DNA of 36,339 nt from Psammoneis japonica (lineage: Eukaryota), in contig QPGO01000170.1 in assembly GCA_008632985.1 (NCBI GenBank), forward strand, positions 124,001 through 160,339, in the 5' to 3' direction. A program made the position numbers and the translations under genes. Shown in pieces: positions 1,123-21,613 of this stretch (its first letter is position 1; every line of letters starts with the position of its first letter). The notes under the pieces are model-generated. The model searched no databases and was not told the origin of the DNA. It worked only from the letters and a program-made list of their open reading frames with translations.

Positions 1123-3523
1123 GTGTGCCAATGTTGTGGTTTGTTTGTGATGCAGCAGCTTTTGTTTCCTTTATGTATTACCCGAACTTCTAATGACAAT
1201 GATTGTGTTGTTGCGTCGAGAGCGTGCGTTTTTCAGTTCACGTTGCTTGGGACGTCTTTGGAAGTGAGACTGTCGAAGAAAGTTACGTAGAATTTGTACT
1301 GAAACAGTCTGTCAATCAGTGCGATGGGGGCATTTGGGAACACTGGACAAATCCTACGTGTTTCATTTTGCGTACAAATTTTACTGGGAAAACCCCGAAA
1401 CGCACAGACGGACAGTACATTGTTTGGCAGGCAGCTCTCCAAAGACGTCATCCAAATGAAAGATACAGTACGGACGACGAGCGAGACGGCAAACGCTGAT
1501 GACGGACCCCTGCCGCAGTCTAGACTACTGTATTCAAACTGCGCGTGAGACGGGAAGTTGGCTTGGGGGTGCGGTGCGGAAGAGGTTGAGCATGCTGGAT
1601 GCACGAATCATCGCGATTGCGACCACATCATTCAGTGCATGCGGGCCACGTAGATTCTACGCACGCGCGCCATGCTCTTCATCTCAATCGTGGCGGGCTC
1701 AACAAGATTGGTCTTTTCGTCTCATTCGTGGATGAACCATTCGCAGTTTCTTTTTTGGTGCATTCGGCAAGCTTGTTGCAAAGGAGCCAAAGCCAAACTT
1801 GTGGATTTGCTCCTTTGCTCTGATTCAAGCAGTGCAGACATTTGAGGAGGACCTCAACAACAAGTCCACGGCAAAATCAATGATGCATGGCTCGCTCTGT
1901 TTGCCGGGGCTCTGGGACATGCCTCTTTGTTTCTCGTGGTGCAAAGCTCAAGGACAGACTTGCCCAACTGTGACTGGCACATCTGTCATTTGACTCATGT
2001 GCCAGGTTTGGAAGACTCAAGCCAAGGACCACCTGTGCAGCAGCAACAAAGGCAAAGTTGATGACAGGAGTGGCCCCAAGCTGTCGCGCCCAGTGTGCAC
2101 TGATCTGCAGCAGGTTTGGGTGCATCAGCCATGCAGCACCACACGCAATCACTCATTTGTCTGCCTGGCTCTCTGCAAATCTACAAAGCCACTGTGAATC
2201 ACATGAAATGCAAAAACAATGGCCCTCAGCCAGCAGAAAACAAGTGTTCATAAAAACAGGGTGTGCAACAAAGCAGATTTGTTCCCACCAGCATGCACCA
2301 CAACTTGCAGATGCCAGCAGCATCTTGCATTGTGGGGCTCCCATGGCAGGTGATGCACAGCCCAAAAGCATGTGCCACACATGCCTGCACAAACTCAAAC
2401 TCACTCTGCTGAGAAGTGGGCAGGTTGATGGCGTTGCTGCACTTCAACCGGGGAGTGGCTGGCCTGCACAGTCATGAGGGTTGAGCACTCAATTGGCCCA
2501 CAAAACCCTGTCTGTCAAGCAAATGCTCTGTGCACAATGCTGCTCATTGCCCAGCACTTGCTGGGAACTGAGATGAGCTTCTTGAGGCAAAGGTCTTCAC
2601 TTGTGGGTGAGAAGACGCCGGCGCACATGCATGGCATGAATGGGCGCTTTGCACAACTGGGGGTTTTGGAGCAACACACCACCAGCTCAGAAATGGCCCT
2701 TGCAAGTGTCAACAGTGGCAATCAACATGCCCCAGCTTTGGTGGATTGAACCTTGCACTGCTGCACTGTGACATGAGAGTTTTTTGATCATGCGCCACAT
2801 GTGTCAGGCACGCACATCTGTGTGCATGCTCTTCTGCAAAATTGCCCCATGCTCCCAAATGCTTTTTGTGTTGCTTGCTTGTGAGAACAAAAACAGTCTG
2901 GGTGCCCTGGGCAAGTGCCCAGGGTTTCAAGAAAATGTCACCACTTTTTGCTCAATTTTGTGAAAATGTTGGTGCTCTCAACATTTTTGGATTCAAAAGA
3001 CAGTTGAGGGTGGCCTGGAAAGCTGGCCAAAGACAAAAGCACCTGGCTGCATCCATTTTTCCATGAAAAAGTGATTTTTTTTAGCTCTGCACCCCAAGCC
3101 CCACCAAACAAATGATGTCACACATTGAGCAGCAACTCTCAAACTTTGAGCTGCAAAACTGCATGACAATTTGCTCTTTCATCTCAAGAGCACACAAGAC
3201 AGTTAAAAGTGACTTTTTTCCACCACAGAGACAGCAAGGCAAATGACCACATTGACAAACTTTGCAGGATGATTGCTTTGAGTGCTGTTGCACAGACATG
3301 GCATTGTCGCACCTTCAAATCTGACACACAAAATGACACATTTTGCTGTCAATTTTGTGCACAGTTTGTGATGTGGAGTCAGAACACCACAGTTTTCAGC
3401 ATGCAAATCACCAACAATGTCAATGTGACATGACAACAAAGCCTCCACTCCAGCACATTCACTCAACAACTGGTTGGGATTTGTGATGGCTTCAATGGTG
3501 TGCCGATTGCAGGGGCTGCATGA

Positions 3524-3925
3524 GATGGCAATGTTGCCATGTTGCTGTTTTCTTGAAACCCCACAGAAAACAATGCACTGCAAGCATGGGTTTTTTTCTG
3601 TTGACAATGTTCTTGGCAGAGAGCCCACATGCAACATTTTGCAGGTGCAGCATTGCATGGAGATCTGCCTGTCAGTGCTGGGGTGCATCAATCTTTGTAG
3701 CTGCTCAACACCTGTCTCCCAATTTGCACTCAGCGGAGAAGAGCCAATGGAAAGAAGGTGCATTTCTCAAACCTTCAGCTTTGAGATGGCACAATTTCCA
3801 CTGATCTGGTGTGTGTCCTCATGGGGCTCTGTTGACAGTGACAGCTGGCAACAACGCTGGATGGCGCTGTTGCCATGTTGCTGTTTTCTTCAAACCCCAC
3901 AGAAGCAACACACTGCAATCATGGG
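3524..3925 (+). repeat. ~66-bp dispersed direct repeat pair (3524-3590, 3860-3925)
   Basis: gatggcaatgttgccatgttgctgttttcttgaaaccccacagaaaacaatgcactgcaagcatggg vs gatggcgctgttgccatgttgctgttttcttcaaaccccacagaagcaacacactgcaatcatggg. Confidence 0.8.
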
Positions 3926-4348
3926 TGAGTTTGTGCACACACAAAATTTCTTTTTAAGGTGCTTTTGACAGTCACTGGTTGGTTCATCAGCACCACCTGA
4001 TGTTTTGAGTGCAGAGCTCACACACAGCATTCTGGCGTGGGTGCAATGTCCATCTGGGACGCCAACAATCTGGGTCTGACCATCTGCCATGATCTGGGCA
4101 TTTGTTGACTTCAATGCCAGATTGTTGTCAACTTATGAGCCAAGTCTCTCCTCAAACACAATGTGAGAACCACACAAGTTTGCAAGCTTCTAAAACCCAA
4201 ATCGCTTCCCACTTTTAAGTGCGGTCATTCTTTTCACACAATGGCGACCTGCACCTCAATTGACATTTGCAGTTTCTTGTTCTTTTGTCACAAATGTTGC
4301 TGCTTGTAATCCACTCGTCCTGCATTTTGTCTCTTTGCTGTGTTGTTT

Positions 4349-5536
4349 TCAAATCCAAACTCCCAACTGCCACACGTTCTTGCATCTAAACCGCTTTGCA
4401 GAAAGTTTTTCACATTTTTGCTTTTCTGGATTTTGTTGTTTGTGTTTCAATTTGCACTTGCACACCAGTTTGGTTGGCCACCATTGCAGCATTTGCCACC
4501 GCTCCATTGCCTGCAGCCACCGCCTGCAATGGCAGGTCCTCTCCCATCGGCACCGCCCATCCTTCCTCTCTCTCCTTTCTCTTTTCCTCTCTTTTGCGTT
4601 TCTTGTTTTCCTCCTTGGACAAGCTCGTCTTCTCTTGCCTTCTCTCTCCTTGAACCATGCACCGAATCCCTGGTTGTTCTCTCTGTCTTTCACCACCCAC
4701 TGGCACAGATCATTGTGCTTCTTGATCCCCTCCTTGCTCCATCCTTGGTTCCTCTTTGCCAATTCCCCCACTGCCTGCGCTGTGTGCTTTGCAGGAGCAG
4801 AGTCTTTCACTGTCAGCTTTCTTCTCCTTGCAACATTTTCTTCCTTTTCCAATTTCTCGGCCGTGTCCTTCACCTTGTTGCAGTGGCTCAAGTGCACTGG
4901 CAGAGCAAACGCCTCTGACGAAATGGAAAGCCACTCCTGAAGCATGTCGGTTGTGCTTCCACCAAACTGCGCTTGTCCCACCACCATCGGCACCACAGTT
5001 TCCAAGAACCATGCGCGTGTGTCCTTGTCATTTCTTCCCTTTGTCAAATCTTCACAATCCACCAGCGATCCCTCTAAAGCAGCAACTGCACAGATGAAAG
5101 CAAAGGAAGCAACACTCATCCCGTTGGACAATCGCCTCCAACACAATCAAAGGCGCGCACACATCTGCTTGCCTGTCATTCTCCTCCCAATGTTGTCCTG
5201 CACATTGTTCCTCTTTTGGTTGAGTTTGGTTCTGAACACCTCTTTGCATTCTTCCCAGAATGCCTCCGGTGAAGACGCCATGCTCCTCAACTCCTGCAGA
5301 ACCAATTTCATGCAATCTCCTCCTGCAGCAAGTTCTTGATCAAAGATTGTGAACTTGCCATGTGGCCAAACACTTTCATTGATTGCCTTTGTCAGCACAT
5401 CAATGCTGTCAATCTCTCGCCCACCGCTGGTGCATGATCCAACACAAGACATCCCTCTGTGGGAGTCACCACCGAACTTGAATCCCCACCTGTGCCTGGA
5501 ATCTGTTTGGTTTCCCATGTCCATTTCTTTGTGCAT
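4349..5536 (-). pseudogene. Decayed two-exon gene, transposon-associated hypothetical protein
   Basis: ORFs 5147-5536 (VWPHGKF...FWEECKEVFRTKLNQKRNNV) and 4349-5146 (SSEAFAL...KHT...GWSKEGIKKHNDL...KDR) join in frame (M-T-V-A-A-L-E-G) if an 87-bp intron 5172->5086 is removed. The motifs resemble proteins I recall beside diatom Plavaka-like transposases (unverified). Confidence 0.5.
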
Positions 5537-6307
5537 GCAACAAGGCCGCCACCGCAGGACTCATGGTGACTTCATGTGACACCACACAGGTGAGCCCAAT
5601 TCAGTCAGTTCTTCAGCAACTCTTTGTCATGTCCTTTCTCAACCTCACTTGCTGCTGGAAGTTGCGCTTCCTCCCTCCATTGCTCCTGTGAGAACTGCAT
5701 CTTCCATCCTTTTTACCTTCCCAATGGCTTCCTCTCATTTGGAACTTCTGTCCTTTCCTGTCACTTTATGAACAGGCAAGTTGCAAAATGAATGCACTTT
5801 GCATGTGATTTTCTCTGTTTTGTTGTTGCTTGCATGTCCTCTCTTGATTCAAACATGTCTTTGCATCATTTTTGAGTGCTCATTCCCAACCCCATGTTTG
5901 AATTTCTGTCAACCTTCCACTGTTTTGAATTGCGCACCTTTGCCAGCCAATCTACAACACACCAATGAAAATTGCAACATCATTTGGGTCAATGTCAAAC
6001 AACACATTTTACACTCTTGCATTGGTGCATGCATTGTGCCTGCTTCCTGATGCAACATCAGCTTCATTTGGTTCAATGAGGTGTGTCAAACCTCCTGTTT
6101 GTTTGTGCAAATCCACATTGCTCATTGTCTCTTGTCAATTCATCCCTGTCTCAATCAGTCATTCTCTCTGTTTCCCCTGCACCACATCTCTCCAATTGCT
6201 CTCTCTGTTGCCCAAACTGTCCAGCCCACTTTCCAGTTGTTCAATGTGTGTGTGCATCAGCAAAAGCATCCGTCCACAATTTCACACATTCCCTTTTTAG
6301 TCCTCCA

Positions 6308-7072
6308 ATGGCTGCCAAAGCATGTCATTGTCACTGAGATGTGGTCGTTGTGAGTCGTTCCTGTTGTGGGAACGTGCGCTCCCTCCATCGCAATCACATG
6401 CAGCCAACTGATGATCAAATTGGTTGTTTTGCTGGTGGTGGCGTGGAATCACACGGCAGCATGGCAAGCTTTGCCTTCTTCACTGAGGTTGTTTGTAACC
6501 CTGCTCTCCTTGTGGCCCAAACTTGCAGCCCTTTTAATTTCATTGACATTGGTGGTGGTGTTGCCGGTTTTGCGATTGCCTGTTGTTTGCTTGTTCCTTT
6601 CTGCAATGCCTGCAGCATTGAGTTCCACCGCCCCCCTCATGATTTGGGCTCTCAGTGGTGCAATGCCATCTGGCCTGACCACACCAGTTGCTGTCCCACC
6701 CTGATCAATCAGGACTTCCTCTCTGAAGATGATGCTGTGCGTCAGTTGTGCCGTCAGAACAACTTAAAGATTTTCTTCAACAACTGCAATGGGCGAATGC
6801 TTTTTGACGACAATGCAACACAGAACCAACTCAAGGAGATGCTGCCCAATGAGTGTCCTGAAGGTGCTGTCATCATTTCGCTGGACGTGATGTTTTGTGC
6901 GCATGCCCACAAATGGAGGCATGAAGCATTCTTTGTTCCTGCCTGTCCAGACGATCCATCATGGGGAGGCAGTGTCAACAGGCACCCACTTCACAAGTGC
7001 ACCAAGAAAAGAGACGATGCCGTGGAGCCAAGGCATTCCACCAGGAATGACCCAGGGTCTGACATCAAATGA
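6308..7072 (+). pseudogene. DOT1-like (H3K79-type) class I SAM-dependent methyltransferase, hypermutated
   Basis: Motifs in DOT1 order: HGS (cf. YGE), FIDIGGG (cf. FxDLGSG), SIE (cf. GIE), QDFL, IFFNN (cf. IFVNN), PEGAVIISL (cf. KEGGRIVSS). ATG at 6308 is in frame, with a TGA at 6335 (plausibly CGA->TGA). Confidence 0.65.
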
Positions 7073-7234
7073 AAATTTGAGCCCGCCAAAAGTGGGCAAC
7101 TTGGCACTTTCCCTTTTTTTGTGTGACTTTCTTCCATGCAAGCAATGCATTGTCAATTGGCCCTTCGCACAAACTTGCTTTTTACCTTTGCTGACTTGCT
7201 GCTCAGCCAGTTTTGCATTCCAACAACTGCTTGT

Positions 7235-8243
7235 TCACACGCTCACTGTGTCGAAATTGTGGACTGGACATGCCATGTTCCTTTGATCCGAGTTCTTTTT
7301 GTCAGGCAAAGCTCGGTGCAACATTCTTGCATCAAAAACAAATGCAGTGCCTGCTTCTCCAACCAGCAATTGTTTTTCCAAACCCAACCTGACCAAGTGT
7401 TTTTTGCATTCCTTCTCATTCAATGTTGCCTCACAACCATCCAGCCATGTCTCAACTGCACCATTGTCCTCCATTGTGTCATCGAGGAACAGAAACATGG
7501 TGAAAATTTTGTCGCCAGGAAACAATTCTGTTTCCACGCAATCACAATGAATTTCCCCCTTTGACCAGAAGTTTGATGTTGAGCTTGAAAACTTGAAGCA
7601 GGGGCGTTTGCTGCTGTGTGCCGGGATGTCTTTCTGCATGAATCACCTGCTGGGGGAAAGCCAGGAATTGACCCCAACATTTTTCTGCCAACTCAATGCC
7701 TTCCGCCTTGTCCTTTTTGTCAATGATGAACTCACTGACAAAACGGTGTCCTTCCTTCTCTTGCTTGCTGCTTGGTGCCTTGTTTGCCAGGGTTGCAATC
7801 TTGTTGAACAGGGGTTGTGGTGTTTTGAATTTTTGCAAGCAGCCTTTTTTTCCTTCCTGGTGCACTCTTTCTTTGGACCCGGCCATCTTGCTCTTGACGA
7901 CATGAGATTTCATTTCACCCGGGTGTGCCAGTAACTTGCTGTGTTTCTGACATGATGTTGTCGGCCAATGGGCAAATTTCCAGCATCCGTCAACAGAACA
8001 CTTTTGCACCATTCTCTGAACATGCCGGCTCCACCAAATCAAATGGAACCCAGTCTTTTTTTTTAAGCAGAACAGACCCAATTCAGCGAAAGTCCGCATC
8101 CATTGCTGTGCAATGAGCATGGCTTTCTTGTGAAATCTGTGTTGCCAACGGCATCTGTTGGGTGCACGGCAGACGTTTTTTTCGTAAATGGTCCAGTGTG
8201 ATGTGATCTTCGTCCATCCTCTTTGCTGCATGATCTCATTCAA
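7235..8243 (-). pseudogene. PhyH-like 2OG-Fe(II) dioxygenase, frameshifted and hypermutated
   Basis: GEIHCD (HxD), TMFLFLDD..DNGAVETW, GEAGTAFVFDARMLHRA (distal His) and a downstream Arg in ORF 7235-7639. The N-terminal part probably lies in ORF 7542-8243, with a frameshift near 7560. Confidence 0.65.
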
Positions 8244-8435
8244 TGGGTCATCCCAGCTGTCTCAAAGCACAGAAAACAATTTGGTTGCACACTGTCTTGT
8301 CAGTGTTTTTGTGTGATGTTTTCATGTTGACACCGCGGCCAACACAAAGGAACAGCCACCATCCACCATTCATTCCGCACCAAAAACAAACTCTTTTAGA
8401 ACAATGTGTGCAATGAACAACTGCAAATGATGCTT

Positions 8436-8735
8436 CGGTGTCACTTTTTAATTGACACACCCACATGTCAACAGATCAATTTGGTGCCATTTTTTGTTGA
8501 TGCACTTGTCTGCCAACAGACCAATTTGGCACAACTTTTTCATTGTTGCACACATGTGTTGACATGTGTGTTTGGCATCACTTTTTTGTTGACACACCTG
8601 TCTGTCAACAGAGCAACTTGGTTTCACTTTTTTGTTTTGCACATGTGCGCCAACAGAAGAATTTGGTGTCACTTTTTTGTTGATGCACCTGTCTGTTGAC
8701 AGATCAATTTGGTGTCACTTTTTTGTTTGCACACT
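8436..8735. repeat. Degenerate tandem array, ~45-bp unit, ~6-7 copies
   Basis: Consensus approx. ttggtgtcacttttttgttgacacacctgtctgtcaacagatcaat, with an internal inverted pair TGTTGAC...GTCAACA. Confidence 0.85.
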
Positions 8736-9024
8736 GAACAAAAGCCAGTGCATTGTCGTGACATAAAGTGGATCTCCCGCAGCAAACCACATTCTCCCAA
8801 ATCTGGTCCAAGTCGCTGATCAACGCATTTTGAGCAGCAAACGGACAACGTTGGGGCAACTCTGTCTCTTGTCCTCCGCAGCCATGTCATTCCCTTTGTG
8901 AAACAATGACCTCAACATGATCCCACCCCAAAGAATGCCTCCCAATCCCTTGCCTGTTGTGCCACGTTGCTGAAATGGAGCTGACGAATCTCTTTTTTGT
9001 CCGGCGCATCGCACTTCTTTCCTG

Positions 9025-10544
9025 ATGACATTCCACCCAACTCAACCTGACATTGCTTTGCCACTGCCATGTCACAAAACAGCGTTGGCCAACATTCCAT
9101 CTGGCCGTTGTCCCCCATCGGTGCATCCAGCCCCGTTTGGCACAGAAAACAGCCTTGACACAAAATTGAGGCTGCATTGTTCTCCCACACGTTGGGTGAA
9201 CAAATGCGGTCACGTTCATTCATCACTCAAAAAAAGGGGTTTGACAGACCACTCAATCCGCGGCATTGTGCTGATGATGTTTGGTGCAAAAATCTTTGCG
9301 TTTGAGAGCAGTGGGAAGAGCAATGCATGCAACCCAAACCGCCTTGGTGAACTTGCAAAATGGCCGGCACATCCAAGCTACATTGGATTGGCTTTGAAGA
9401 GGGCTCCCAGAGCTGGCTCAACGAAAGAAAAAAAGGCATGCAGAAAAATCATTGATGTGCACTGCCTCCAAACCAAAAAATGCAAAAGATCTGTGGTGGT
9501 TCAGGTGAGGGATTGCATCTTGCGCACTGCTTCCATTTCCCATCTGTTCCTCACCCAACAAAATGCATGTTGATTTCTCCTAGAATGAAAGCAAAGCTAA
9601 AAGTCAAATGATTGCCACTGGTGTTGACTCCGGTGTGGAGGCTGCCCATGACTGTGACAATGACACAACTTGGGCAGAGACGGATGTCATGGATGACGAA
9701 CATCAAATTTTGACTGGGGCAGAGAGTGAAGAAGTGTTGCCAGCAAGGGATTGCATCTGTCGCACCACTTGCATTTCCCATCTGTTCCTTGCCTGACAAA
9801 ATGCATGTTGATGTCTCCTGGAATGAAAGCAAAGCTAAAAGTCAAACAATTGCCACCGGCATTGACTCAGGTGAGGAGGCTGCCCATGACTGTGACAACA
9901 ACACAACATGGGTGGAGACGGATGACATGGATGACAAATGTCAAATTTTGACTGGGCCAGAGAGTGAAGAATTGTTGCATGATGCTGGCAGATTGTTGAC
10001 AATTGGCATGGAAGTCGGTGGTGATTTAAATGGAAGTGACAAAGATGCGCGCAACAGCATTCAAACTCAATGCCTGCAGGATCTTGGATGTGATGTTTGC
10101 ACAATTGACAAGAAGACATGCGCTGTGCTTCCTCACTGAAGCACACAGAGTGCGATGTTCTAAGTTTGCACAGATCAGCGGAATGGAAGAGATCATCCAA
10201 AGAGACAAAGTTTGACCGCACTTGCTTTGACTGCGTGCATTCAAACCCAGCGCATCTCTTGGCTTCAGTTCTAAAGGGACCTTTTTTCCAAGATGCACTC
10301 AAGGAGCTGCTGCTGTTGCTGACGGAAAATGGGATTTTCTTCTTGCCTGCATGCAATCTTGCTTTTTCCAAATTTTGGGTCAAATGGAAGAAACAACACA
10401 TGTCGGAAGAGTGCCCAATTTGCTTCTTGCGTGAAGAGCAAGCACAGAACAAGGTCCCCATCCTTTGAGACAAGGCACAAGTTGACATCTCTGCCTGCGG
10501 AAAGTTTTGTGCAAGGGAAGAGTGCACAAAGGATCATGAGTTAA
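9025..10544 (+). pseudogene. Decayed multi-exon gene with duplicated acidic exon and possible C-terminal methyltransferase-fold domain
   Basis: Phase-0 introns 9505-9583 and 9743-9821 join ORF 9025 (...VVVQ) to two NESKAKSQ...ESEE exons. Downstream FDRTCFDC...LTENGIFFLP weakly resembles class I MTase beta4/beta5. Confidence 0.45.
9505..9978 (+). repeat. 238-bp tandem duplication of an intron+exon unit
   Basis: 9505-9742 aligns with 9743-9978 (gaatgaaagcaaagctaaaagtcaaa at 9583 and 9821). Many differences are TG<->CA swaps. Confidence 0.92.
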
Positions 10545-13157
10545 AACATGAAGAAGTGAAATGGCTCACACAACCAGGTGAAGCTGTGTTGGCGCATTTT
10601 CCAGATTTTGGAGGTCCAGTCAAATGCATCGGATTGGCCAGAAGAAGAAAGGACCCTTGCCATGTTCCAGTTTTCACCGGTGGCAACTGTGTGCATTGTC
10701 CAACATGCAGTCTCAAGAGACAGAGCATTTTCTGCAATGCCCATGTTGCAGGCCGGCTCCCATCCGGAATGCTGTGCAGTTTGATCTTGACTGCAAAGAT
10801 GCACCTGACTCTGCATGTGGAACAAAAAACAGCAAGAAAACCAAGGAAGAATCTCTCCTCCACCAAATCAAAAAGTGCAACGCCAATCTTGTCAGTTGTT
10901 GGAGGAAGAAGGGCCAACCACATGGGGCGGGTGGCAAGAACTGGGGTTTGTTGTCAATGCGTCCCAAAAGCCTTGGTGACAATTCCAACAACAAAAGAGA
11001 AGTCAAGCAAAAGTTCCACCTGAAACAACCTCGCCGGAAGTCCAACAAGCTGTCTGATGCGTTCGACAACAACATCCTTTTTGTTGAAAAACCAGGCAGG
11101 GAGGGAACGAGGTGTTCCCTCATCATCCACTTCAAGCTGCGTGCAATGCACATGGTGTGATGGGTCCAAATGCTTTAGAGCAAATGAGTCGGCACCTTCA
11201 ATGCAAGGCAGAGATTCTGCACTCGGGTGCCAACCACCCGCACCGGGCAAGTGATCCAACTCATCCATTTGTTTTGAACCCAGATGCAATGGAGGGAATC
11301 ACCAACAATGCTGTCTTCAGGTCACGCAAGTTTGACAAAAGAATTCTTGGACTCGGTTTGTCAACGCAGCTCAGAGCCATTGTTGAACAGGGGCTGAGCA
11401 GTGGGTCAGCACGAGAGTTTTTACTTGCTGCAAAGTTTGACCATTCATGTCGAGGCACTGTGCCAAAGATTTTGGCATGAATGGAGTGATTGCTCAAGGG
11501 TGGAGCCGCAATGGTGGATCAGGTGTTGCAAAGCCTGGAATGACAGAAAAGGAAAAAGACCTCTCTGCCAGGTGCAGACAGTGGATTTTGCAGCTGACCG
11601 TGATTTTGGTTCACGTCATGTGCCAAAAAGCTTTGCATGGAACACCAAGGTCTTCCCAAGGAGAAATGTTGGAGTGAAGATGAAGGTTGTCTGAGAAATG
11701 CCAAGCCTGGTTGGGTTGCCCAGAACAATTGCGAGGTGTGTTAAAGCTCAATGAGGCAGGATCTCACATTGCCGGTTTTCCTCTAAAACACTTTGACTCA
11801 GAAAATGAGCGGGAATTCCTCTTGGATGACATTGGCAACGGTGTTGTGTTCATTGATGATTGGCGGGGTTGCAACACTGGCAAAGATTTGGTGGATGAGC
11901 TGAGAAGGCATTCGGCACCCATCACGAACACAATGTTTGACCATCTGTTGCAAAACAGAGAGATCGTCGGAGTTCAGTTACAAAAGCTGCTGTTCAAGAC
12001 GGATTGTGAACATGCAAATGCCCCATTGGAACAACTGGAATCCCTGACAGATGGCTTCAACCTTTCCACAATGGAAAACACAGATGATGTTCAGTGCGCC
12101 ACCCAACACATTGGGGATCACCTTCAGTGATTTGACAGTGGCGACCATGAGGGCATGTTGGGATTGCTTGTTGATGAAGGCTCAGACAGAGACCTTCTCC
12201 TGGGATCACCCACAGCTGGTTCAATTTCACATTTCACTGTGAGGGGCATGTTGCTTTCCACCACAGAGACGAATTCGCGGCATTTGTGGGCATGGAATTC
12301 AATGGCGCACCTCTTGTTGCATTGAGGGAATCTGTGAAACCTGAAAACCAAGAATCTGTGAAGACTTTGTTGCAGAAAAATGAAGTGGGATTGTTGCGCC
12401 ACCAACTGGTGTTGATGATGAAGCAACTGAAGAACAACGGCAACATGAGCGGAACAACGTGTTCAATGTTGCAGAGATTTCAATGCATGGATCCTTTGTT
12501 GACCAACATTGAAGAGATGCAAATCTGCTGTGCATTCATTTCCAGTCAATTTGACACTCTGCAGGCAAAGGACACTGGCGGAAGTCACGAATCTGCCAGG
12601 GAACTTTTGTTTTGTCGAGAAGCCAGGAAGAACAAATCACCCAAGCAGTGGTTGCCAAGCAAGAGGTTGGGCGATGTGCGCGTGGCTTTGACGATCCAAT
12701 CGGCTTCCGCGATGGGACAAATCCCCCCTCAAAATGCGCAGTGGCATGCACATCCAAGGGCAACTCTGGATTTTGTCTCTTTGTCAGCATGTGTGTTGTC
12801 AGGAAGGAAGCACATGCGAGAGGTGAATGGATCTCCTTGTTGAAGGCAAGGGAAGTTGTTCAAAATGCAATTGAAGTTGCAAGAAAAAATGGCAGAAGAC
12901 CAACTTGGGCCAAATGTGACCAACTGGGCTGCAGGGAATGTCGATCAATGAACAACAAGTTGTGTGAGGATCCATGCCACCTCACATCTGGCGAGTGGGG
13001 TGTGTTGCCCGTTCCCTCTTTGGAACATTCGAACAAGTCGACAAGCGGTTTGTGGCCTGATGAATCAGAGCACAGGATTGAATGTTTTGTTGGTGACCAA
13101 TGGTGTGATTTTGTCAACTCATGTCAGTGTTTGCTCTTGAGTCAAGTCAAAGCATGA
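10545..13157 (+). pseudogene. Large decayed coding region, function unknown
   Basis: Consecutive protein-like plus-strand fragments (11687-12130, 12286-12843, 12612-13157) broken by TGA stops and frameshifts. No family recognised. Confidence 0.4.
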
Positions 13158-13400
13158 ATGGATGAAGCAGAAGGGTTTGTTCCAATTCCGAGAATCGAAA
13201 CTGAGCGGGACCAACCAGCACTTTTAGACAAATTAGCAAGATCTCACTGTTCGCTGCACTTGCTGATGGAAGGACCAACAAGGAGTGGAACCAACAGATG
13301 CTTTTAGATGGGTTGACACGCCTTCACAGCAAACTCATTAGAACACTGACAGAGTGCTTAAAAAAATTTACGAGCGTTTCCTTTTTCCCAAGGTGCGTTG

Positions 13401-14560
13401 TCATTTCTCTTCATCTCGCTTCCTGCGTTTGTCTGAGTGAAGCTGGAGCACTTTGTTGGACAGGAAATAATTTGGCCAGTCATTGTGTCTGTCTGCAACA
13501 AACAACAATGAGTTCGAGCATCCCGCTGCTTCAACATTGTCTCCATTGCAGTTGTTGGGAACCAGGACAGAGAAACCACCCGCTGTAATTGCGTCTCTGC
13601 CAGCATGCCAAAATTTTGGGACATGCAATGTCTTTGTCTGTTCCTTGCATGACTGTCCTGCGGCAAGTGGCGTTGTTCCGTCATCAGCCAGTGCAAAACC
13701 ATGGAGCACAAAAGGGTGCCTTTTTTTCTGACCGGTTCCCTCTTTGCACAAGACCCTGGGTGTGTCACACCACAACCCATTGTTGTTGCAATTGGGGTGT
13801 CCATGAATTAAAATCCCTTTCTCTGGCATGGCAAACTCCGAGCAAACAACAATTTCATCATGCTTGGTGGACAGTTCCTCCGTTGGCAACAACAAAAAAT
13901 GAAGCAGGGTGGAGTCCACTTCTGCAGTTTCCGGGACAACCCGGATCTTGTTGCTGCCTGAACACTGACAGCAAGTTTGGGCAGTTCTGTTCACAACAAA
14001 CAAGGGGTGCATCAATTTTCTTCAGAGGAAGATGCGCTTGCCTGGCCAACCATGGGATGGATGAGAGGGCTGCATGCCTTCTCGAGAACTGCCATGTCAT
14101 GCAAACGAACAACAAGTTGGTCCAAGAAATTGTCTGCACCCAAAGCAACCTGGCAAGTTTTTGCCGGAAGCTTGGCCCAGAACTTCAGGTGACTCTCTCC
14201 AGTCATGGCAGAGAAATTTGCAATCTGGCCACAAAGGAAAGAGTCGACAATGAGATGCAGCATAGAATGGAACTTGGTGGTCCGGAACAAACTGGTGTTC
14301 CTTGTGCGATGAAGGCAAACTTTTGTCTTGAACATGAGCAGGATGACGCGGCACTTGAAATCCACCTTTCCTGTTTTTTCATGGAGTCCCTTGCTGCAGA
14401 GACAAAACAAATGGAAAAGCAGCACATGATGCAACAAGTCCAACAATTCATCAACTCCACAATCGACGGATTTTCATGAAAGAGTCAGGAAGTTTGTTTT
14501 CCATTTCTGCACAAATGACAGTGCTTGGCAATTTTGACTTGGTGAGAAGAAAGTGCCATC
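13401..14560 (-). pseudogene. Plavaka-like transposase, C-terminal portion (left of the copia insertion)
   Basis: TKFHSMLHL...GQIANFSAMTGESHLKFWAKLPAKTCQ (14012-14446) and IHGHPNCNNNGLWCD (cf. HPNY...WYD) in ORF 13401-14015. Confidence 0.7.
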
Positions 14561-14565
14561 TGTCT
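14561..14565 (+). repeat. 5-bp target site duplication TGTCT (left copy; right copy 21609-21613)
   Basis: ccatc-TGTCT-tgacagg at the left end; ctgtca-TGTCT-gctc at the right end. Confidence 0.95.
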
Positions 14566-14841
14566 TGACAGGATTTGAACAGGATTTGGATGCGCGCGAA
14601 GCATCGCGCGCTGTTTAGTTTGCCGTGCACAGTTTTGTGTGCTTTAGTTCCGCGCGTTCACGCGCGATGTAGTTTGCTTTCGAGCCACAAGGCTCACAAG
14701 AACAATGACAGCAGCCCGATTATACCGACTTGCACGTCTTTCGGCTCCTGCAACGGTCTCTGAGCGGAGACTCATCTGCCATTTAGACAGCAGCAAGGAG
14801 TCATTGTTTGAATTCTTGCCATTTGCCTTCAATTTCTGTCA
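14566..14841 (+). repeat. 5' LTR (276 bp)
   Basis: Ungapped alignment to 21333-21608 with 12 mismatches; TG...CA ends with a 6-bp inverted terminus. Confidence 0.97.
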
Positions 14842-14858
14842 GATTGACAGTCTTGCTC
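14842..14858 (+). promoter_or_regulatory. Putative primer-binding site, half-tRNA type
   Basis: gattgacagtcttgctc directly follows the LTR. Its reverse complement GAGCAAGA-CTGTCAA-TC resembles an anticodon arm, and there is no TGG complement to a CCA end. Confidence 0.45.
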
Positions 14859-15715
14859 ATTGTCAACCCATTGAGCAACCGCCATCATCGTCGTTGATTT
14901 TCCAACGACGCTGTTTTTAATTCTGCGTGGACCTCCGTACATGTTCTACATGCATCGGCAAGTCTGCGCGCATTCAATGCCAGGGCATCGGCAGGAAGTT
15001 AACGTCACCGTCAAGTCTCCTCACCGCTGGACATCTGGATTGATCATGCTACCTTTGATCGCTGAAGACATACATTCAACGGTCACATCCAAGTCCATCC
15101 TTGATCCTCATCCCTTGATGTACCTGTTCACATCTTCACGGCCAAGAACCTGCACCCACTCTTCGGACTGCGGTTTTGCTGCCACTCTGCAAGCACACCG
15201 AGTCCATTGCACCTGATCTACCCCGGACCACTGGTGCTCTGCAGTTCCACTGGGTCCACGAGGACGACTGTGAGAGCAAGCAGCCGTGATTGCAGCCTGC
15301 GTTGGGGCGAGGGTGCTTTCCCGCGTTTGTTCGTTCGTCCACAGCGCCTGACGCCTACGTCAACTGGCCAGCCTGATCGGGAAATCCAACCGATGTAAAA
15401 TGAGAACGGTTCGGGGGTCTTGTCCACCTCTGGTCAGCTTACCTGCAGGGGTTTACAACCCGCTGCTCCGCTCGTAAGCAACCCAAAGCGCCACCAGCTG
15501 CGGGTTCGGACGTGCCGGCACAACTCTACGGACCGGATAGGAAGTTTAGCACTCAACAACGAACGGGATGACAAAGCCCGGCGACTTCTGATTTTTAAGA
15601 TAGTTCAAGATTTCAAGTCAAGTCTGTTTCAAGTCAAGTCCACTCTCACCCAAGTTTCGAGTCTACCTTCGCTTCCCAACCAGAATTGATTGTCCTGACA
15701 CCATTTTTGTCTACC

Positions 15716-18700
15716 ATGGTTCTCACTCGTCAGCAACAAACCGATGGTTTCGAGCACGTGGTTGGAACCGTGCTTGCCCAAGGTGCTGGGAGTCCTCTTC
15801 GTTTGGCTTTGGCCCAAGACGGCACGGACTCACATCAGGAACTATTCACGTTCATGCCGTCCCAAATCGACTCGCTTGAGTGCGACAACGGCACTAATGC
15901 AATCCCTTTGCCCCGTGGTTGTGAGAACATGTTAGCAGCACTGGTCAGTCTGTACATTGTTAAAGCACACAAAGGTCTTGACGTTGCCAACGACTCCTCT
16001 TTGTTCACGCATGACGAGTTCCTTGCCTGCCGCCTCAGCCCCGACTGCATGTCTTCTGTGTCCATCGGCAGCTCACCCCTTGCACCTCCACATGTCACCA
16101 ACCCGACCAAGGCACGCGACCCGGTGCGAGACTTCAAGCGAGGCATCAAGCGTGATCCCACCGCTTTCACGGCTCTCAAATCCGACAAGCAGTGGCACAC
16201 TTGGCACACCTCACTTGTGGCACAAGCCCGTGCCCAAGACGTCGAGTGCACTCTAGACTCGTCGTACAAACCGACCAGCCCCGAAGACAAACTGCTCTTT
16301 GCTGAACAGCAAAAGCACATGTTCGCCGTCTTCGAACGCATCCTTCTCACCGACAAGGGCAAGGCTCTCATTCGCGAAAATGTGGGGTCCTCTGACGCAC
16401 AGACCGTCCACCGCTCCTTGTCTGCACACGCGCTTGCCTCCACCCGTGCATCTGTCGAGTCCTCCACCCTGCTCACGCACCTCACCACCGCACGTCTTGG
16501 TGATGGCACTTGGAAAGGTCCGACCCACGGGTTCATCCTTCATTGGCAAGATCAGTTGCGCAAGTACGAGGCACTCATCCCCGCCAGCGACCACTTCTCT
16601 GAAGGACAGAAGCGCGTCATGCTCGAGAATGCCGTGCATCCTGTCGAGGAACTCCGTGCTGTCAAGAACCAAGCTGATCAGCATCGTACGCAGAGTGGCA
16701 AGAGCCTCACATGCGATCAATGCTGTGGCTTGCTCCTCTCCGCGGCAGCTCAGTGCGACAGCACGTTTCAACCCAAGACGACACCTCGAGCTCCCCGACG
16801 CGCCATGTGCGCACACGACGTCTGCTCCGAGGAACCGTCCGACGATGTGTTCTACGACATTGACAGCGACGTTGACGTCCTTCAAGCCAATGCTGCCTGC
16901 ACTCGTGGTCCCAGCCTCACCGGTGTCCAATGGAGACGTCTCCCTCCCGACCACCAACGGCTCTGGGATTCGTTGCCCGATTCCACCAAGGCGATCATCC
17001 TCGAGCACTCTCGTCCGCCTCCCCGCAACCCGCGAGCCAGTGACCACCATGAGTCTGTTATGGCCAACCTTCACGACCAACACCTTGGGAGTGACGGTGA
17101 TGTCAACTTGTCCAACACGACTCCTGCTGACTGTGGTGACCCCGCCACACATGTGGATGCCACTTCGGATGATCCCATCCTGGCGCACCTCACCAAGCGC
17201 AAGCCACTGCCACCCGGTGATCTGCAACGTCTGTTGTCTCCTAACCAAGCCCCCAATGCCAGTCGACCGGGGCCATCCGCCGCTTCCTCCACCCCGCCAG
17301 CTTCTGCAGATGACATGGAACTTAACGGCCGCACTTGCCGCCGCGTCAACAACCACAATGTCATTTGCTCTGCCTCTGCTCATCGCTCCACACGCACTGG
17401 CGCTCTAGTCGATCGTGGGGCCAACGGCGGCATTGCTGGCGACGACGTTCGCATCATTGCACGCACCTCTCGCCAAGTCGACGTTCAGGGCATCGACGAT
17501 CATCAATTGGTGGACATCCCCATTGTCACCGCTGGTGCCGTCATTGAGACCCAGCGTGGTCCCGTCATCGCCATCCTCCATCAGTGCGCATGCACGGGAA
17601 AGGGCAAGACCATCCACTCCTGCGGCCAGCTCGAATGGTGCAAACAGGATGTCAACGATCGCTCTGTCAAGGTGCCCAACGGCTTGCAACGCATTGCCAC
17701 TCCTGATGGCTGTGTCATCCCCATTGACATCAAGGCTGGCCTGCCTCATGTTGCCATGCGACCTTGCACTGACGCCGAATGGGACACCCTGCCCCATGTC
17801 ATCCTTGCCGGTGATGACACATGGGACCCTTCCGTCCTCGATCACTCTGTCACTGACGACGACCAGTGGTGCGACGCGATCTCTGATCCACAGGACGATC
17901 CCACTGCCAACCTGTTTGACGAATGCGGCAACTGCCGTCACCGTGTCATTGTCAACGAGACCATCTTGTCCGCTTCCTTGTCTGCCGATCACGCGTCCGC
18001 CCTCGATGATCACCTCATTCCGAACGACGACGTGTTCTACGAGTGTCATCTGCATGCGATTGACCCCACGGGCGATGACGTTCCACCTCCGGAGCGCACT
18101 GTAAAGCCCAAGGACCCCCCCTTCGAGTCTCTTCGGCCTTGCTTTGGCTTCCCACCTGCCGATGCGGTCCGTCGTACTTTTGACTGCACCACGCAGCACG
18201 CCCGCATGCCCGCCGGTACACACCTTCGCAAGGCCTGCAAATCACCCAACCCCGCCCTTAATGTGCACCGCCGCAACGAGCCCATCGCCACTGACACCGT
18301 TCATGCCGACACCCCGGCCGTCGACTCTGGTTGCACCAGCGCCCAACTGTTTGTTGGCACCGAGTCTACCGTCACTGACGTCTGCGGCACTGAGACGGAC
18401 AAAGAGTTTGTCAACACACTCGAGGATCAGATCCGTGAACGTGGTGCACCATCCAAACTCATTAGCGACCGTGCTCAAGTTGAGATCAGCAACAAAGTGC
18501 TCGGGATCCTACGCGCCCTCTTCATCTCCAGCTGGCAAAGTGAGCCTCACCAGCAACACCAAAACTTTGCCGAGCATCGATGCCAGACTGTGAAGCGCAT
18601 GGCGAACACTGTCATGGACCGTTTTGGTTCGCCCGCCCACACATGGCTGCTGGCGCTCATGTGCGTGTGCTTCATGCTCAACCATGCAGCATCCCCACGT

Positions 18701-21385
18701 CTCCACTGGCGCACGCCCCTCGAGACTCTCACTGGATCCACCCCGGACATCAGCCCATTGCTTCGCTTTCACTGGTGGGAACCAGTGTGCTTCCACCTCG
18801 ATGACTCCGATTGGCCGTCCGAATCTCGTGAGTTGCGTGGACGCTTCGTTGGCATTGCTGAGCACGTCGGCCACCAGATGACCTTCAAGATTCTATCTGA
18901 CGAGACTCAGAAGATCCTCTGCCGGTCCAACGTTCGCTCCGCCACCCCCGATCCTGCCGTTCGAAACCTGCGTCTTGATCCTCCTGATGGGGAGCCACCT
19001 GAACCCATCATCAAATCTCGCCATGACGACAACCCCGTCGATTCTCCTGATGGGGAGATCAGGACACCCAAGATGCCAGTTTTCGATCCGCAAGACATCA
19101 TTGGACGTACCTTCCTCATGCAGCCACAAGAGGATGGACAACGCCACAGAGCTCGCATCGTCAAGGCCGTCGAAGACCACGAATGGAAAGTGAACGGCAA
19201 TCCCGAGCTCACTAAGTTCGTCTGCTCTGTCAACAATGACGAATACGAGGAAGTCCTTGCCTGCAATGACATCATGAATCACATTGAGCAAGAAGACGAA
19301 GACACCACCATTTGGAAATTTCGACGCATCGTGTCACACGAAGGCCCTCTGAAGCCTCACGACCCAACCTGGAAAGGCTCAAGCTACAACATCATGCTTG
19401 AATGGGAAAGTGGGGAGATCACGTCCGAGCCTCTTGCCATCATCGCCAAGGACGACCCCGTCACCTGTGCCATCTATGCACGAGAGAACGGACTCCTCGA
19501 CACGGATGGATGGAAGCGGTTCCGCACCATCGCGAGGCGCCAAAAGAAGCTATTTCGCATGGCCAACCAAGCCAAGCTTCGCTCCTTCCGCACTGCACCT
19601 CGCCACAAGTGCGGATGCGAAGTTCCCCGGAACTACAAACACGCCATGTCACTAGACGAACACAACGGCAACCGCAAGTGGGGAGACGCAACTAATCTCG
19701 AGATGGACCAACTCGACGAATACGAAGTCTTCCATGACTGCGGGCCCTTCAAGTCTTCCACTCCTCCTGCGGGACACAAGAAGATCCGAGTCCACCTGGT
19801 GCACGACGTGAAACACGACGGTCGCCACAAGGCACGACTCGTAGCCGACGGGCACCTCACGGACGTACCTGTCGACAGTGTCCACTCCGGAGCAGTCTCC
19901 CTTCGTGGCCTTCGGCTGATGATTTTCCTGGCCGAACTCAACGAGCTGGAGACATGGGCCACCGACACTGGCAATGCCCACCTTGAAGCCACCACCAAGG
20001 AGAAGCTTTACATTGTAGCTGGACCCGAATTTGGCAAACTCGAAGGACACATCCTTGTCATCCACAAGGCACTGTATGGACTCCGCAGCTCCGGTCTCCG
20101 CTGGCACGAGCGCTTCGCCGACTGCCTGCGAGCTGAAGGCTTCTTCCCCTGCCGCGCCGAACCCGACATTTGGATGCGCAGGAACGGCGACCACTGTGAA
20201 TGCATTGCCGTTTATGTGGATGACCTCGCCATTGCCATGAAGGACCCTCAATCTTTCGTCGACACTCTCACGGAAAAGTGCAAGTTCAAGCTCAAGGGTG
20301 CGGGACCCATTGAGTTCCATCTGGGTTGCGACTTTTCCCGGGACCCCGACGGAACCTTGTGCCTGTCTCCGCGCAAGCACATCGAGCGCATGGTCGACAG
20401 CTGCGCCCGACTGTTTGGGGAGAAACCTGCCACCAATGCCCTGTCACCTCTAGAGAAGGGTGACCACCCCGAACTGGACACTTCCGAACTGCTGGGACCC
20501 GATGGCATTCACAAGTTCCAGTCTCTTGTTGGTTCACTCCAATGGGCAGTGTCCCTTGGTCGAATTGACATTGCCACGGCCGTCATGTCACTCTCTAGCT
20601 TCCGAGCTGCACCCCGTCAAGGCCACTTGGATCGTGCCAAACGCGTCTGTGGGTGCCTCTCCAAGATGCGACACGGTGCTCTCCGCGTTCGCACGGAAGA
20701 GCCCGACCATTCGGATCTCCCTGCTCCGGCCTACGAATGGATGCATTCCGTGCATGGTGAAGCAGAAGAGATGATCCCGAAGGACGCTCCACCGCCCCTT
20801 GGCAAGTTCGTCACTGCCACCCACTGCGTCGATGCAAACTTGCACCATTGCATGCTCACCGGACGCTCTGTCATGGGAATGCTCCACTTCCTCAACAAAT
20901 TCCCGGCTGATTGGTTCTCCAAGAAACAAGCCACCGTGGAGACTGCAACCTGCGGATCTGAATTTGTTGCCGCAAGGAATTGTGTTGAGCAGATTGTCGA
21001 CCTGCGCATCACCCTGCGCCACCTTGGCGTCCCGATCCGTAATGTCAGTCACATGTTCGGTGACAACAAGTCGGTTGTAGACAGTGCCACCATCCCGCAC
21101 TCCAAGTTACACAAGCGACACACCGCACTGTCGTTCCACCGTGTGCGTGAGGCAATTGCCTCTGGTTGCCTTGAGTTCCACTTCATCGAAGGCTCCCGCA
21201 ACCCTGCTGACATTCTCAGCAAGCATTGGGGTTGCTCCCAAATCTGGGACCTTCTCCGCCCCCTCATGTTCTGGAACTTCATTCCATCCGAAGTCGAATC
21301 TGTTTCTGTGGCTCCTCAAGCAAACTGGGGAGTGACAGGATTTGAACAGGATTTGGATGCGCGCGAAGCATCGCGCGCTGTTTAG
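15716..21385 (+). CDS. Copia Gag-Pol polyprotein (open frame, missense-riddled)
   Basis: ATG at 15716 (MVLTRQ). Protease LVDRGANGG (~17405); integrase ATDTV / ISDRAQVE / QNFAE (~18285-18575); RT KARLVADGH, KALYGL, YVDD (~19830-20225); RNase H VDAN, GSEF, FGDN, NPADILSK (~20830-21225). Confidence 0.95.
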   Translation: MVLTRQQQTDGFEHVVGTVLAQGAGSPLRLALAQDGTDSHQELFTFMPSQIDSLECDNGTNAIPLPRGCENMLAALVSLYIVKAHKGLDVANDSSLFTHDEFLACRLSPDCMSSVSIGSSPLAPPHVTNPTKARDPVRDFKRGIKRDPTAFTALKSDKQWHTWHTSLVAQARAQDVECTLDSSYKPTSPEDKLLFAEQQKHMFAVFERILLTDKGKALIRENVGSSDAQTVHRSLSAHALASTRASVESSTLLTHLTTARLGDGTWKGPTHGFILHWQDQLRKYEALIPASDHFSEGQKRVMLENAVHPVEELRAVKNQADQHRTQSGKSLTCDQCCGLLLSAAAQCDSTFQPKTTPRAPRRAMCAHDVCSEEPSDDVFYDIDSDVDVLQANAACTRGPSLTGVQWRRLPPDHQRLWDSLPDSTKAIILEHSRPPPRNPRASDHHESVMANLHDQHLGSDGDVNLSNTTPADCGDPATHVDATSDDPILAHLTKRKPLPPGDLQRLLSPNQAPNASRPGPSAASSTPPASADDMELNGRTCRRVNNHNVICSASAHRSTRTGALVDRGANGGIAGDDVRIIARTSRQVDVQGIDDHQLVDIPIVTAGAVIETQRGPVIAILHQCACTGKGKTIHSCGQLEWCKQDVNDRSVKVPNGLQRIATPDGCVIPIDIKAGLPHVAMRPCTDAEWDTLPHVILAGDDTWDPSVLDHSVTDDDQWCDAISDPQDDPTANLFDECGNCRHRVIVNETILSASLSADHASALDDHLIPNDDVFYECHLHAIDPTGDDVPPPERTVKPKDPPFESLRPCFGFPPADAVRRTFDCTTQHARMPAGTHLRKACKSPNPALNVHRRNEPIATDTVHADTPAVDSGCTSAQLFVGTESTVTDVCGTETDKEFVNTLEDQIRERGAPSKLISDRAQVEISNKVLGILRALFISSWQSEPHQQHQNFAEHRCQTVKRMANTVMDRFGSPAHTWLLALMCVCFMLNHAASPRLHWRTPLETLTGSTPDISPLLRFHWWEPVCFHLDDSDWPSESRELRGRFVGIAEHVGHQMTFKILSDETQKILCRSNVRSATPDPAVRNLRLDPPDGEPPEPIIKSRHDDNPVDSPDGEIRTPKMPVFDPQDIIGRTFLMQPQEDGQRHRARIVKAVEDHEWKVNGNPELTKFVCSVNNDEYEEVLACNDIMNHIEQEDEDTTIWKFRRIVSHEGPLKPHDPTWKGSSYNIMLEWESGEITSEPLAIIAKDDPVTCAIYARENGLLDTDGWKRFRTIARRQKKLFRMANQAKLRSFRTAPRHKCGCEVPRNYKHAMSLDEHNGNRKWGDATNLEMDQLDEYEVFHDCGPFKSSTPPAGHKKIRVHLVHDVKHDGRHKARLVADGHLTDVPVDSVHSGAVSLRGLRLMIFLAELNELETWATDTGNAHLEATTKEKLYIVAGPEFGKLEGHILVIHKALYGLRSSGLRWHERFADCLRAEGFFPCRAEPDIWMRRNGDHCECIAVYVDDLAIAMKDPQSFVDTLTEKCKFKLKGAGPIEFHLGCDFSRDPDGTLCLSPRKHIERMVDSCARLFGEKPATNALSPLEKGDHPELDTSELLGPDGIHKFQSLVGSLQWAVSLGRIDIATAVMSLSSFRAAPRQGHLDRAKRVCGCLSKMRHGALRVRTEEPDHSDLPAPAYEWMHSVHGEAEEMIPKDAPPPLGKFVTATHCVDANLHHCMLTGRSVMGMLHFLNKFPADWFSKKQATVETATCGSEFVAARNCVEQIVDLRITLRHLGVPIRNVSHMFGDNKSVVDSATIPHSKLHKRHTALSFHRVREAIASGCLEFHFIEGSRNPADILSKHWGCSQIWDLLRPLMFWNFIPSEVESVSVAPQANWGVTGFEQDLDAREASRAV
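21322..21332 (+). promoter_or_regulatory. Polypurine tract
   Basis: aaactGGGGAG directly abuts the TG of the 3' LTR. Confidence 0.7.
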
Positions 21386-21608
21386 TTCACCGCGCACAGT
21401 TTTGTGTGCTTTAGTTCCGCGCGTTCACGCGCGATGTAGTTTGCTTTCGAGCCACAAGGCTCACAAGAATAACAACAGTAGCCCGATCATGCCGACTTAC
21501 ACGTCTTTCGGCTCCTGCAACGGTCTCTGAGCGGAGACTCATCTGCTGTTTAGACAGCAGCAAGGAGTCATTGTTTGAATTCTTGCCATTTGCCTTCAAT
21601 TTCTGTCA
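21333..21608 (+). repeat. 3' LTR (276 bp)
   Basis: Matches 14566-14841 at offset 6767. Confidence 0.97.
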
Positions 21609-21613
21609 TGTCT

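Follow-up and report, generated by a model that had tools for sequence, protein, structure and literature searches.

Loss of TA dinucleotides in nested transposons of the diatom Psammoneis japonica, with a preference for TA followed by a pyrimidine

The window analyzed here is a 36,339 nt stretch of the diatom Psammoneis japonica (GenBank assembly GCA_008632985.1, contig QPGO01000170.1, positions 124,001 to 160,339 of the forward strand), in which a Ty1/copia retrotransposon, a probably Plavaka-like DNA transposon and an older repeat-like block are nested within one another. TA dinucleotides in these elements have been converted to TG or CA after insertion, preferentially where a pyrimidine (Y) rather than a purine (R) follows, and we have very little doubt about this pattern. 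The Y/R rule does not cover the whole motif: counting from the A of TA, with its T at −1, the bases at −2 and −3 carry roughly the same weight as the pyrimidine. The best explanation overall, which we lean towards slightly, would be a host adenine deaminase acting on silenced DNA.

Sequence context of lost and surviving TA sites

The island at 2100–13300 retains 42 TA sites: 25 YTAR, 10 YTAY, 7 RTAR and no RTAY. An earlier note on this DNA had put the numbers at ~25 YTAR, ~16 YTAY or RTAR and no RTAY, and the recount (25, 17 and 0) agrees closely. A second island, at 21600–28400, holds 14 TA (12 YTAR, 1 YTAY, 1 RTAR, 0 RTAY). All 16 NTAN contexts are present in the unmutated flank, and the 376 flank TA divide into 66 YTAR, 107 YTAY, 99 RTAR and 104 RTAY. 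The comparison of NTAN classes between island and flanks that the note had proposed gives a strong difference (chi2 = 43.9, p = 1.6e-9), with an excess of YTAR in the island (odds ratio 6.9, p = 1.8e-8) and an absence of RTAY (0/42, p = 5e-6). The island's own N(TA|TG|CA)N contexts predict 9.9 YTAR, 11.7 YTAY, 10.0 RTAR and 10.4 RTAY, and the observed skew departs from this expectation as well (p = 1.4e-7). Chance or base composition as the cause is ruled out by these flank and own-context tests. TA loss in the window is paired with a gain of TG and CA. The survivors are mostly old sites rather than newly arisen TA: 36 of them lie within the DNA transposon, and at 31 of these, other copies also carry TA (of the other five, one is TG and CA elsewhere, one has a CG copy, two are mostly in other states and one has no data). 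For most survivors, this rules out an origin of new TA by slippage or double CpG decay.

What distinguishes the TA sites that are lost? Context was measured across genomic copies of the copia element at 198 sites; to count, a site had to be TA in one or more copies, be covered by no fewer than 15, and read TA, TG or CA in at least 90% (6 of the 108 sites of the copia 3′ half described below are outside this set). The fraction of cells (one site in one copy) in which TA is kept is 57% for YTAR, 37% for YTAY, 35% for RTAR and 29% for RTAY (Kruskal p = 0.002 at the site level). In a competing-risk model with a site bootstrap, the rate at TAY exceeds that at TAR 2.49-fold (1.95–3.40). Relative to T, the rate at +1 is 0.95 for C, 0.41 for G (0.28–0.58) and 0.37 for A (0.23–0.54). 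An A at −2 raises the rate 1.89-fold (1.29–2.73), the −3 base raises it 2.43-fold (A), 2.04-fold (G) or 1.44-fold (C), and an A at +2 lowers it to 0.66. Equal survival across contexts, which the earlier note had named as the outcome that would overturn its claim, was not seen. Many survivors stand at the ends of T-runs because of the −3 and +2 terms. Likewise, YTAR lasts longest and RTAY is lost first because the palindromic TA consists of two half-sites, each of which may be slow or fast.

The direction of change offers a measure that is independent of mutational dose. Direction alone gives a TAY/TAR ratio of 2.12 (1.62–2.77) in copia and of 2.17 (1.78–2.72) at 222 TA-bearing sites of the DNA transposon, falling to 1.61 at 578 sites when likely CpG-born ones are included; in this regression +1 and −2, and +2 and −3, are not separable, so that only Y/R ratios are usable. 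The DNA-transposon family was represented by 55 of 60 loci, with self and the second haplotype excluded; overlapping loci count a few copies twice. YTAY goes mostly to TG and RTAR mostly to CA. Indeed, YTAY cells are TG 1149 times and CA 462 times, and the effect of C at +1 is strand-specific. Survival and direction of change thus both point to the strand-symmetric mutator preferring 5′-TAY that had been proposed from the survivors. Two further remarks of the earlier note also hold: TAG, the ADAR consensus (UAG), is a slow context here, and the preference is not absolute, with 7 TAY and 4 TAR changes, as sorted by hand, in the long terminal repeat (LTR) pair of the window copia. Out of sample, the copia-fitted model assigns the island survivors a median hazard of 0.97 (n = 42), compared with 2.44 for flank TA (p = 6e-15); for survivors of the second island the median is 0.87 (n = 13; p = 2e-6 against the same flank value).

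Elements affected, level and timing of the mutation

The depleted block is wider than 2100–13300. It runs from ~1700 to ~28350 and comprises three nested layers, listed here with the ratio of observed to expected (o/e) TA and CG:

1–1600: left control flank
1700–4050, no strand: old repeat-like block, left part, left edge approximate; TA o/e 0.04, CG o/e 0.18
2100–13300, no strand: TA-erased island, with the 42 surviving TA
4051–14565, minus strand: Plavaka-like DNA transposon (probable assignment), part to the left of copia; TA o/e 0.06, CG o/e 0.40
4051–4080, plus strand: left terminal inverted repeat (TIR) of the DNA transposon; the TC before it is the 2-bp target duplication
14566–21608, plus strand: Ty1/copia LTR retrotransposon (RVT_2) with a TGTCT target duplication; TA o/e 0.23, CG o/e 0.94
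14566–14841, plus strand: copia 5′ LTR, 276 bp, used in the LTR-pair comparison
21333–21608, plus strand: copia 3′ LTR, 276 bp, used in the LTR-pair comparison
21614–25070, minus strand: Plavaka-like DNA transposon (probable assignment), right part, zinc-finger/transposase region; TA o/e 0.04, CG o/e 0.38
25071–28350, no strand: old outer block, right part; TA o/e 0.02, CG o/e 0.09
28400–36339, no strand: unmutated, gene-bearing control flank; TA o/e 0.59

The DNA transposon is ~14 kb long (4051–14565 plus 21614–25070) and is present in dozens of genomic copies with ~80–89% identity. TC directly follows its right TIR, and its two TIRs differ from each other at TG/CA positions. It is probably Plavaka-like, judging from a sub-threshold match to PF18759 in 1 of 20 open reading frames (ORFs) of other copies (23.4 bits, cut-off 26.3; E = 4e-5) and from Atlas feature matches to Plavaka-bearing clusters (0.95 and 0.94); Pfam gave nothing useful on the window's own degraded ORFs. 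The right part of the outer block has a full-length match in the other haplotype only, plus dispersed repeats of ~160–270 bp. The copia element has at least 40 genomic copies with 96–98% identity. It is young and heterozygous, because the insertion in the window haplotype is missing from the other haplotype (contig C110), yet roughly two thirds of its TA sites have already been altered. TA o/e is 0.02–0.06 in the old repeats, 0.23 in copia and 0.49–0.59 in the flanks, and CG o/e from inside to outside is 0.94 in copia, ~0.4 in the DNA transposon and 0.09–0.18 in the outer block. This gradient across the layers argues that TA is erased first and that CpG decays later. In 21 of 29 copia copies, TA-poor DNA (<20 TA per kb) directly follows the LTR; copia mostly sits within already mutated islands.

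The copia copies used throughout are the best 30 of 40 scored matches per half, projected onto the window copy; the candidates first listed numbered 459 and 366 for the two halves and were ranked by their similarity to the window copy. In the 3′ half, at 108 TA-bearing sites, these 30 copies read TA 1160 times, TG 1052 times, CA 788 times and CG once, with both TG and CA seen at 78 of the 108 sites. Because CG almost never forms, TA is the hub state, and one change removes the target on both strands. How far above background is the process? Changed TA half-sites amount to ~31%, compared with 2.1% of CpG cytosines (307/14938), 0.4% of other A (159/40087 cells) and 0.12% for transversions (non-TA changes being polarized by the commoner base). 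Per A in TA, the rate is ~75 times that in other A contexts and ~15 times that of CpG decay. The effect on the encoded protein is visible at 25 columns where no fewer than 90% of the aligned homologues have Tyr; there the window copia reads 18 Cys/His, 5 Tyr and 2 Phe; its conserved non-Tyr residues are almost all retained. Tyr makes up 0.74% of the window copy, compared with a normal 2.9–5.0% in 120 copia homologues, although the normal Tyr of the homologues is uninformative on how widely the process is spread, since they are mostly metagenomic contigs that collapse copies. The copia ORF at 15599–21385 (plus strand) is open across 1928 codons despite its low Tyr; TA>TG/CA cannot make stop codons, so open frames in such islands are no sign of function.

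At what level does the mutation act? The two LTRs of the window copia, compared as a pair, differ at 12 positions, of which 11 fall on 8 TA-type sites. The copies are star-like, with a mean excess concordance of −0.013 and with 1/374 and 0/406 pairs above 0.95. The DNA transposon, including its TIRs, is mutated equally alongside the LTR element. Because the LTR pair differs, the copies are independent and the DNA transposon is equally affected, the process acts on DNA, after insertion and site by site. Strand-coordinated or processive runs were not seen in the copia copies (p = 0.36 and 0.09). If the element's RNA were edited from A to I, or if the damage arose in reverse transcription, this could explain why raw TG exceeds CA in copia (1052 vs 788) and why a direction-only strand term of 1.25 (1.02–1.52) appears in a simple Y/R model. 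That term drops to 1.09 (0.89–1.35) once context is fitted, meaning that both strands are equal, and the sparing of TAG and the lack of changes shared by descent also count against this explanation. It conflicts already with both the DNA transposon and the LTR pair, and is scarcely credible.

A sequencing or assembly artefact, such as a modified base miscalled in long reads, deserves only marginally more credence. The assembly does contain many 1-bp indels between haplotypes. Nonetheless, the separately assembled second haplotype (C110) agrees at 334/334 sites that vary between TG and CA among family copies, and whether TG or CA is read differs from copy to copy even in near-identical contexts. 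The stretch 1800–4079 is matched, with 3 letters different and 1 gap, by a 2281-bp short-read contig of a public run; this contig is probably from the same sample and so controls the method, not the biology, and the copy-by-copy check in public contigs stopped short of the multi-copy region 4051–14565.

The dose received by a copy shows no dependence on its neighborhood: TA is kept at 0.37 in 8 copies with a TA-rich 3′ flank and at 0.40 in 21 copies with a TA-poor one, and copia TA retention is not correlated with the TA richness of the 3′ flank (rho −0.18, p = 0.35; 1 of the 30 copies was dropped because its flank was too short). Along copia there is on average no clear trend in TA loss. Some lightly mutated copies have their first ~30 TA sites (LTR and leader) nearly intact and the interior mutated. 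The correlation between TA loss and CpG loss per copy is weak (rho 0.30, p = 0.11). A few differences between the haplotypes lie on TA-type sites, a hint that mutation happened recently or still continues.

Proposed adenine deamination and its rivals

How might a cell erase TA from its transposons? A host mutator may act on transposon DNA after insertion, turning the A:T of 5′-TA into G:C. Sites are changed singly and on either strand, the first change destroying the target on both. The chemistry could be conversion of adenine to hypoxanthine, replicated as G, carried out by a zinc-dependent host enzyme from the TadA/ADAT superfamily of deaminases. Such an enzyme would require a 5′ T and would most easily flip the adenine of Y-A-Y; a purine between pyrimidines flips most readily, and Y-A-Y stacks weakly. 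Adenine deamination is suggested because A>G is the direct product of hypoxanthine, because engineered TadA enzymes prefer YAY or TAT, and because no TET/JBP and no MPG/AAG turned up in the genome; we regard this step as somewhat more probable than its absence. MPG/AAG is the main hypoxanthine glycosylase in mammals, and losing hypoxanthine repair could be relevant to the mutator. Targeting would be via silenced chromatin, not via sequence or hairpins. Silent chromatin is preferred to repeat pairing because the erased outer block is now nearly unique, because dose is independent of neighborhood, and because the target of a similar process in the alga Bigelowiella natans is single-copy. The elements would be crippled through recoding (Tyr to Cys/His), without stops.

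Which enzymes known to act on adenine share this footprint? Like the process here, TadA-derived base editors convert A:T to G:C in DNA with a pyrimidine on both sides of the A (ABE7.10 prefers YAY; guide-independent sites of ABE8e are TAT, PMC11983105), although the likeness is one of context only; the editors are engineered, act on single-strand or R-loop substrates and have a broad 5′ tolerance. The −1 pyrimidine preference alone is confirmed by another source (10.64898/2026.07.20.739671). Fungal ADAT2/3 (Tad2-Tad3), which edits mRNA at UA-purine in hairpin loops (PMC11156358), shares adenine deamination and a 5′ U preference. Amphioxus BjADAT2 deaminates DNA at GAA and in hairpins, and also converts C to U (PMC10354150). 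ADAR1/2 have the consensus UAG in double-stranded RNA (PMC10661471); ADAR is alike in the A>G reading and the favored 5′ U, and unlike in that the process here acts on DNA and is slow at TAG. The purine (G) preference at +1 of ADAT2/3 and ADAR is not found, G and A at +1 having the low rates given above, and neither is the U/T-A-C-G consensus of bacterial TadA.

Several observations weigh against a host adenine deaminase. First, A>G in TAY leaves the same sequence change as T>C in RTA, and any host enzyme named for the role is a candidate only. Second, the fit to any one enzyme is imperfect. The natural process is nearly strict for the 5′ T, whereas editors tolerate other 5′ bases (PMC10354150). 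Fungal ADAT2/3 differs in its purine at +1, its hairpins and its RNA substrate, compared with a pyrimidine at +1 and no hairpin effect here; the measured context argues against the simplest ADAT2/3 reading. BjADAT2 differs in that the process here has a pyrimidine at +1, lacks a hairpin effect and makes no C>T changes except at CpG. Among raw 4-mers TACG ranks highest (0.50), and this excess vanishes with the other terms (extra rate 0.91, 0.55–1.38). Hairpin loops have no effect (1.04 per standard deviation (SD), 0.91–1.17; a rough proxy, from 42-nt folds predicted at 197 sites), and neither does predicted unpairedness as a measure of single-strand accessibility. Third, within copia the survival of YTAY, RTAR and RTAY differs little (0.37, 0.35 and 0.29), and the YTAR excess is weaker in the 5′ half (0.49) than in the 3′ half (0.68). 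Fourth, EndoV is present in the genome, and the absence of TET/JBP and MPG comes from one profile search each, of an intron-bearing and possibly incomplete assembly.

If the two strands give the same sequence event, the damaged base could be T: oxidation in R-T-A (TET/JBP-like, giving hydroxymethyl- or formyl-uracil) followed by mispairing with G would leave a footprint formally identical to that of damage to A. Plavaka-type elements are associated with TET/JBP genes in other eukaryotes. The genome search with PF12851 gave 0 candidates, with a weak control (1 of 14 genomes responded, none over the cut-off), and a T flanked by two purines stacks well and hence makes a poorer flipping target. 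We consider damage to T improbable. A little less improbable, though still unlikely, is a lesion that is strict for TA and otherwise blind to context, with the TAY bias arising from DNA flexibility, biased repair or prior marking of A (e.g., methylation). Part of the context does act on both half-sites (an A at −2 is the +1 T of the other half), EndoV is present, and weak Y-A-Y stacking would be felt by any base-flipping protein. Conversely, the +1 C effect is strand-specific (TG 1149, CA 462 in YTAY cells), local AT content has no effect (0.97 per SD, 0.85–1.10), and MPG was not found by profile search.

Error-prone synthesis by a polymerase eta-like enzyme (WA>WG) during repair of methylated repeats is the least probable of these three. 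Pol eta mutates A in WA, TA above AA, and AA is also a hot spot; the repeats here lose CpG as well. However, AA>AG occurs in 45/10922 copia cells (0.4%), the same as in CA and GA contexts, compared with ~31% per TA half-site. Strand-coordinated tracts are missing, a CpG within 10 bp has no effect (0.89, 0.78–1.04), and per-copy TA loss follows CpG loss only weakly.

For the host deaminase, the genome offers several candidates. Profile searches found ADAT2, TadA and two A_deamin paralogues; dCMP deaminase, RibD and guanine-deaminase-like proteins were also found and are housekeeping by motif reading. The bacterial-type TadA has a hydrophobic N-terminus (a signal peptide, judged by eye) and an Asp at what we take to be position 108 of the E. 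coli motif. ADAT2 has an Asn at the position we equate with it, and Asn there is usual in eukaryotic ADAT2. The TadA link suggested by the earlier note is not established: the context does resemble that of engineered TadA editors, whereas TACG has no extra rate, hairpin loops have no effect, and the genome's one bacterial-type TadA looks organelle-targeted and tRNA-type. One of the A_deamin genes is Tad1-like (contig C40) and the other is divergent, with ~34–44% identity over short stretches. The divergent gene (ADAT1/ADAR fold; L151:503–2216, contig C79 ~344170–345890, plus strand) has intact catalytic motifs and no annotated dsRNA-binding domain. All 120 listed homologues lie nearer to it than to the Tad1-like gene and have the catalytic motifs intact, and the named ones are from centric and pennate diatoms. 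It is a candidate mutator only, of a known fold that prefers UAG in ADARs. A more specific proposal, which we offer tentatively and think less likely to be right than wrong, is that diatoms, and perhaps algae of the stramenopile-alveolate-rhizarian (SAR) group more widely, possess a dedicated natural DNA adenine deaminase, distinct from ADAT2/3 and e.g. a divergent A_deamin paralogue. It would mutate silenced transposons in duplex DNA at T-A-pyrimidine, as a defense with the reverse polarity of repeat-induced point mutation (RIP) and a natural adenine base editor.

Two other deaminase-like sequences were noted. L129:313–1785 (minus strand) encodes a zinc deaminase domain fused to a DIOX_N/2OG-Fe(II) oxygenase and is probably a nucleobase salvage protein. 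L134:1315–1773 (minus strand) is a deaminase-like ORF in TA-poor DNA that resembles L129, with His/Cys where L129 has Tyr; by its sequence, it seems to be a copy of a host-type gene struck by the mutator. Stramenopile deaminase clades are listed elsewhere (PMC3239186).

Related processes and other features of the window

TpA hypermutation itself is already described at the preprint level, in B. natans. The preprint (Mettrop et al., 10.64898/2026.01.13.699255) reports TpA hypermutation of integrated DNA derived from NCLDV (nucleocytoplasmic large DNA viruses) and virophages, at a de novo rate ~1000-fold above background, and proposes a deaminase with ADAT2/3 as candidate, not shown. The two cases are alike in TpA>TpG/CpA on both strands, confined to foreign or silent DNA, far above background and with TpA-poor transposon domains. 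Likewise, A:T>G:C in the present data occurs almost only at TpA, on both strands, and the elements in this window have a TA o/e of 0.02–0.23, compared with 0.49–0.59 in the flanks. They differ in that B. natans is a rhizarian, studied in mutation-accumulation lines and mainly through single-copy viral inserts, whereas the diatom case concerns transposons of both LTR and DNA type, an erasure that is nearly complete, and a context measured from −3 to +2. The main text of the preprint, as far as available, holds nothing on wider context or diatoms; its supplementary mutation table could hold context. A literature search, with most subscription papers outside its reach, returned no account of the process in diatoms or of a TAY bias. 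The diatom case is best filed as a variant of the B. natans-type process, and a shared enzyme is conjectural.

Fungal RIP (RID/DNMT4-like) is also a dinucleotide-specific hypermutation of repeats after insertion. Its polarity is CpA>TpA, creating TA and stop codons. The process here is the opposite: TA serves as the hub state and is removed, and conserved Tyr residues disappear. Diatom DNMT4 is RID-related (PMC9998398). The diatom process thus shares its logic with RIP and its footprint with an adenine base editor.

What are the implications of TA erasure in a diatom? First, hardly any natural enzyme is known to deaminate adenine in genomic DNA, and adenine base editors had to be evolved; TA erasure at 15 times CpG decay implies such an activity or equally unusual chemistry. 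Second, the context provides a fingerprint for any candidate: T at −1 required, Y at +1 worth ~2.5-fold, A at −2 and a purine at −3 worth ~2-fold, and no TACG, hairpin or CpG effect. This footprint narrows the kind of enzyme, for a process so far reported in one unrelated alga only. Third, the profile can be compared with the 231 de novo mutations of B. natans. Is there one machine in a stramenopile and a rhizarian?

Minor features of the window include two internal tandem duplications in the DNA transposon (8434–8707, spacing 137 bp; 9508–9978, spacing 238 bp). The right flank carries a coiled-coil protein gene with a 63-bp tandem repeat at 29044–29421 (28773–30233, minus strand) and a gene for a membrane protein with FG-GAP repeats (30697–32454, plus strand). 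The flanking genes show single-base indels relative to the other haplotype, which suggests assembly frameshifts.

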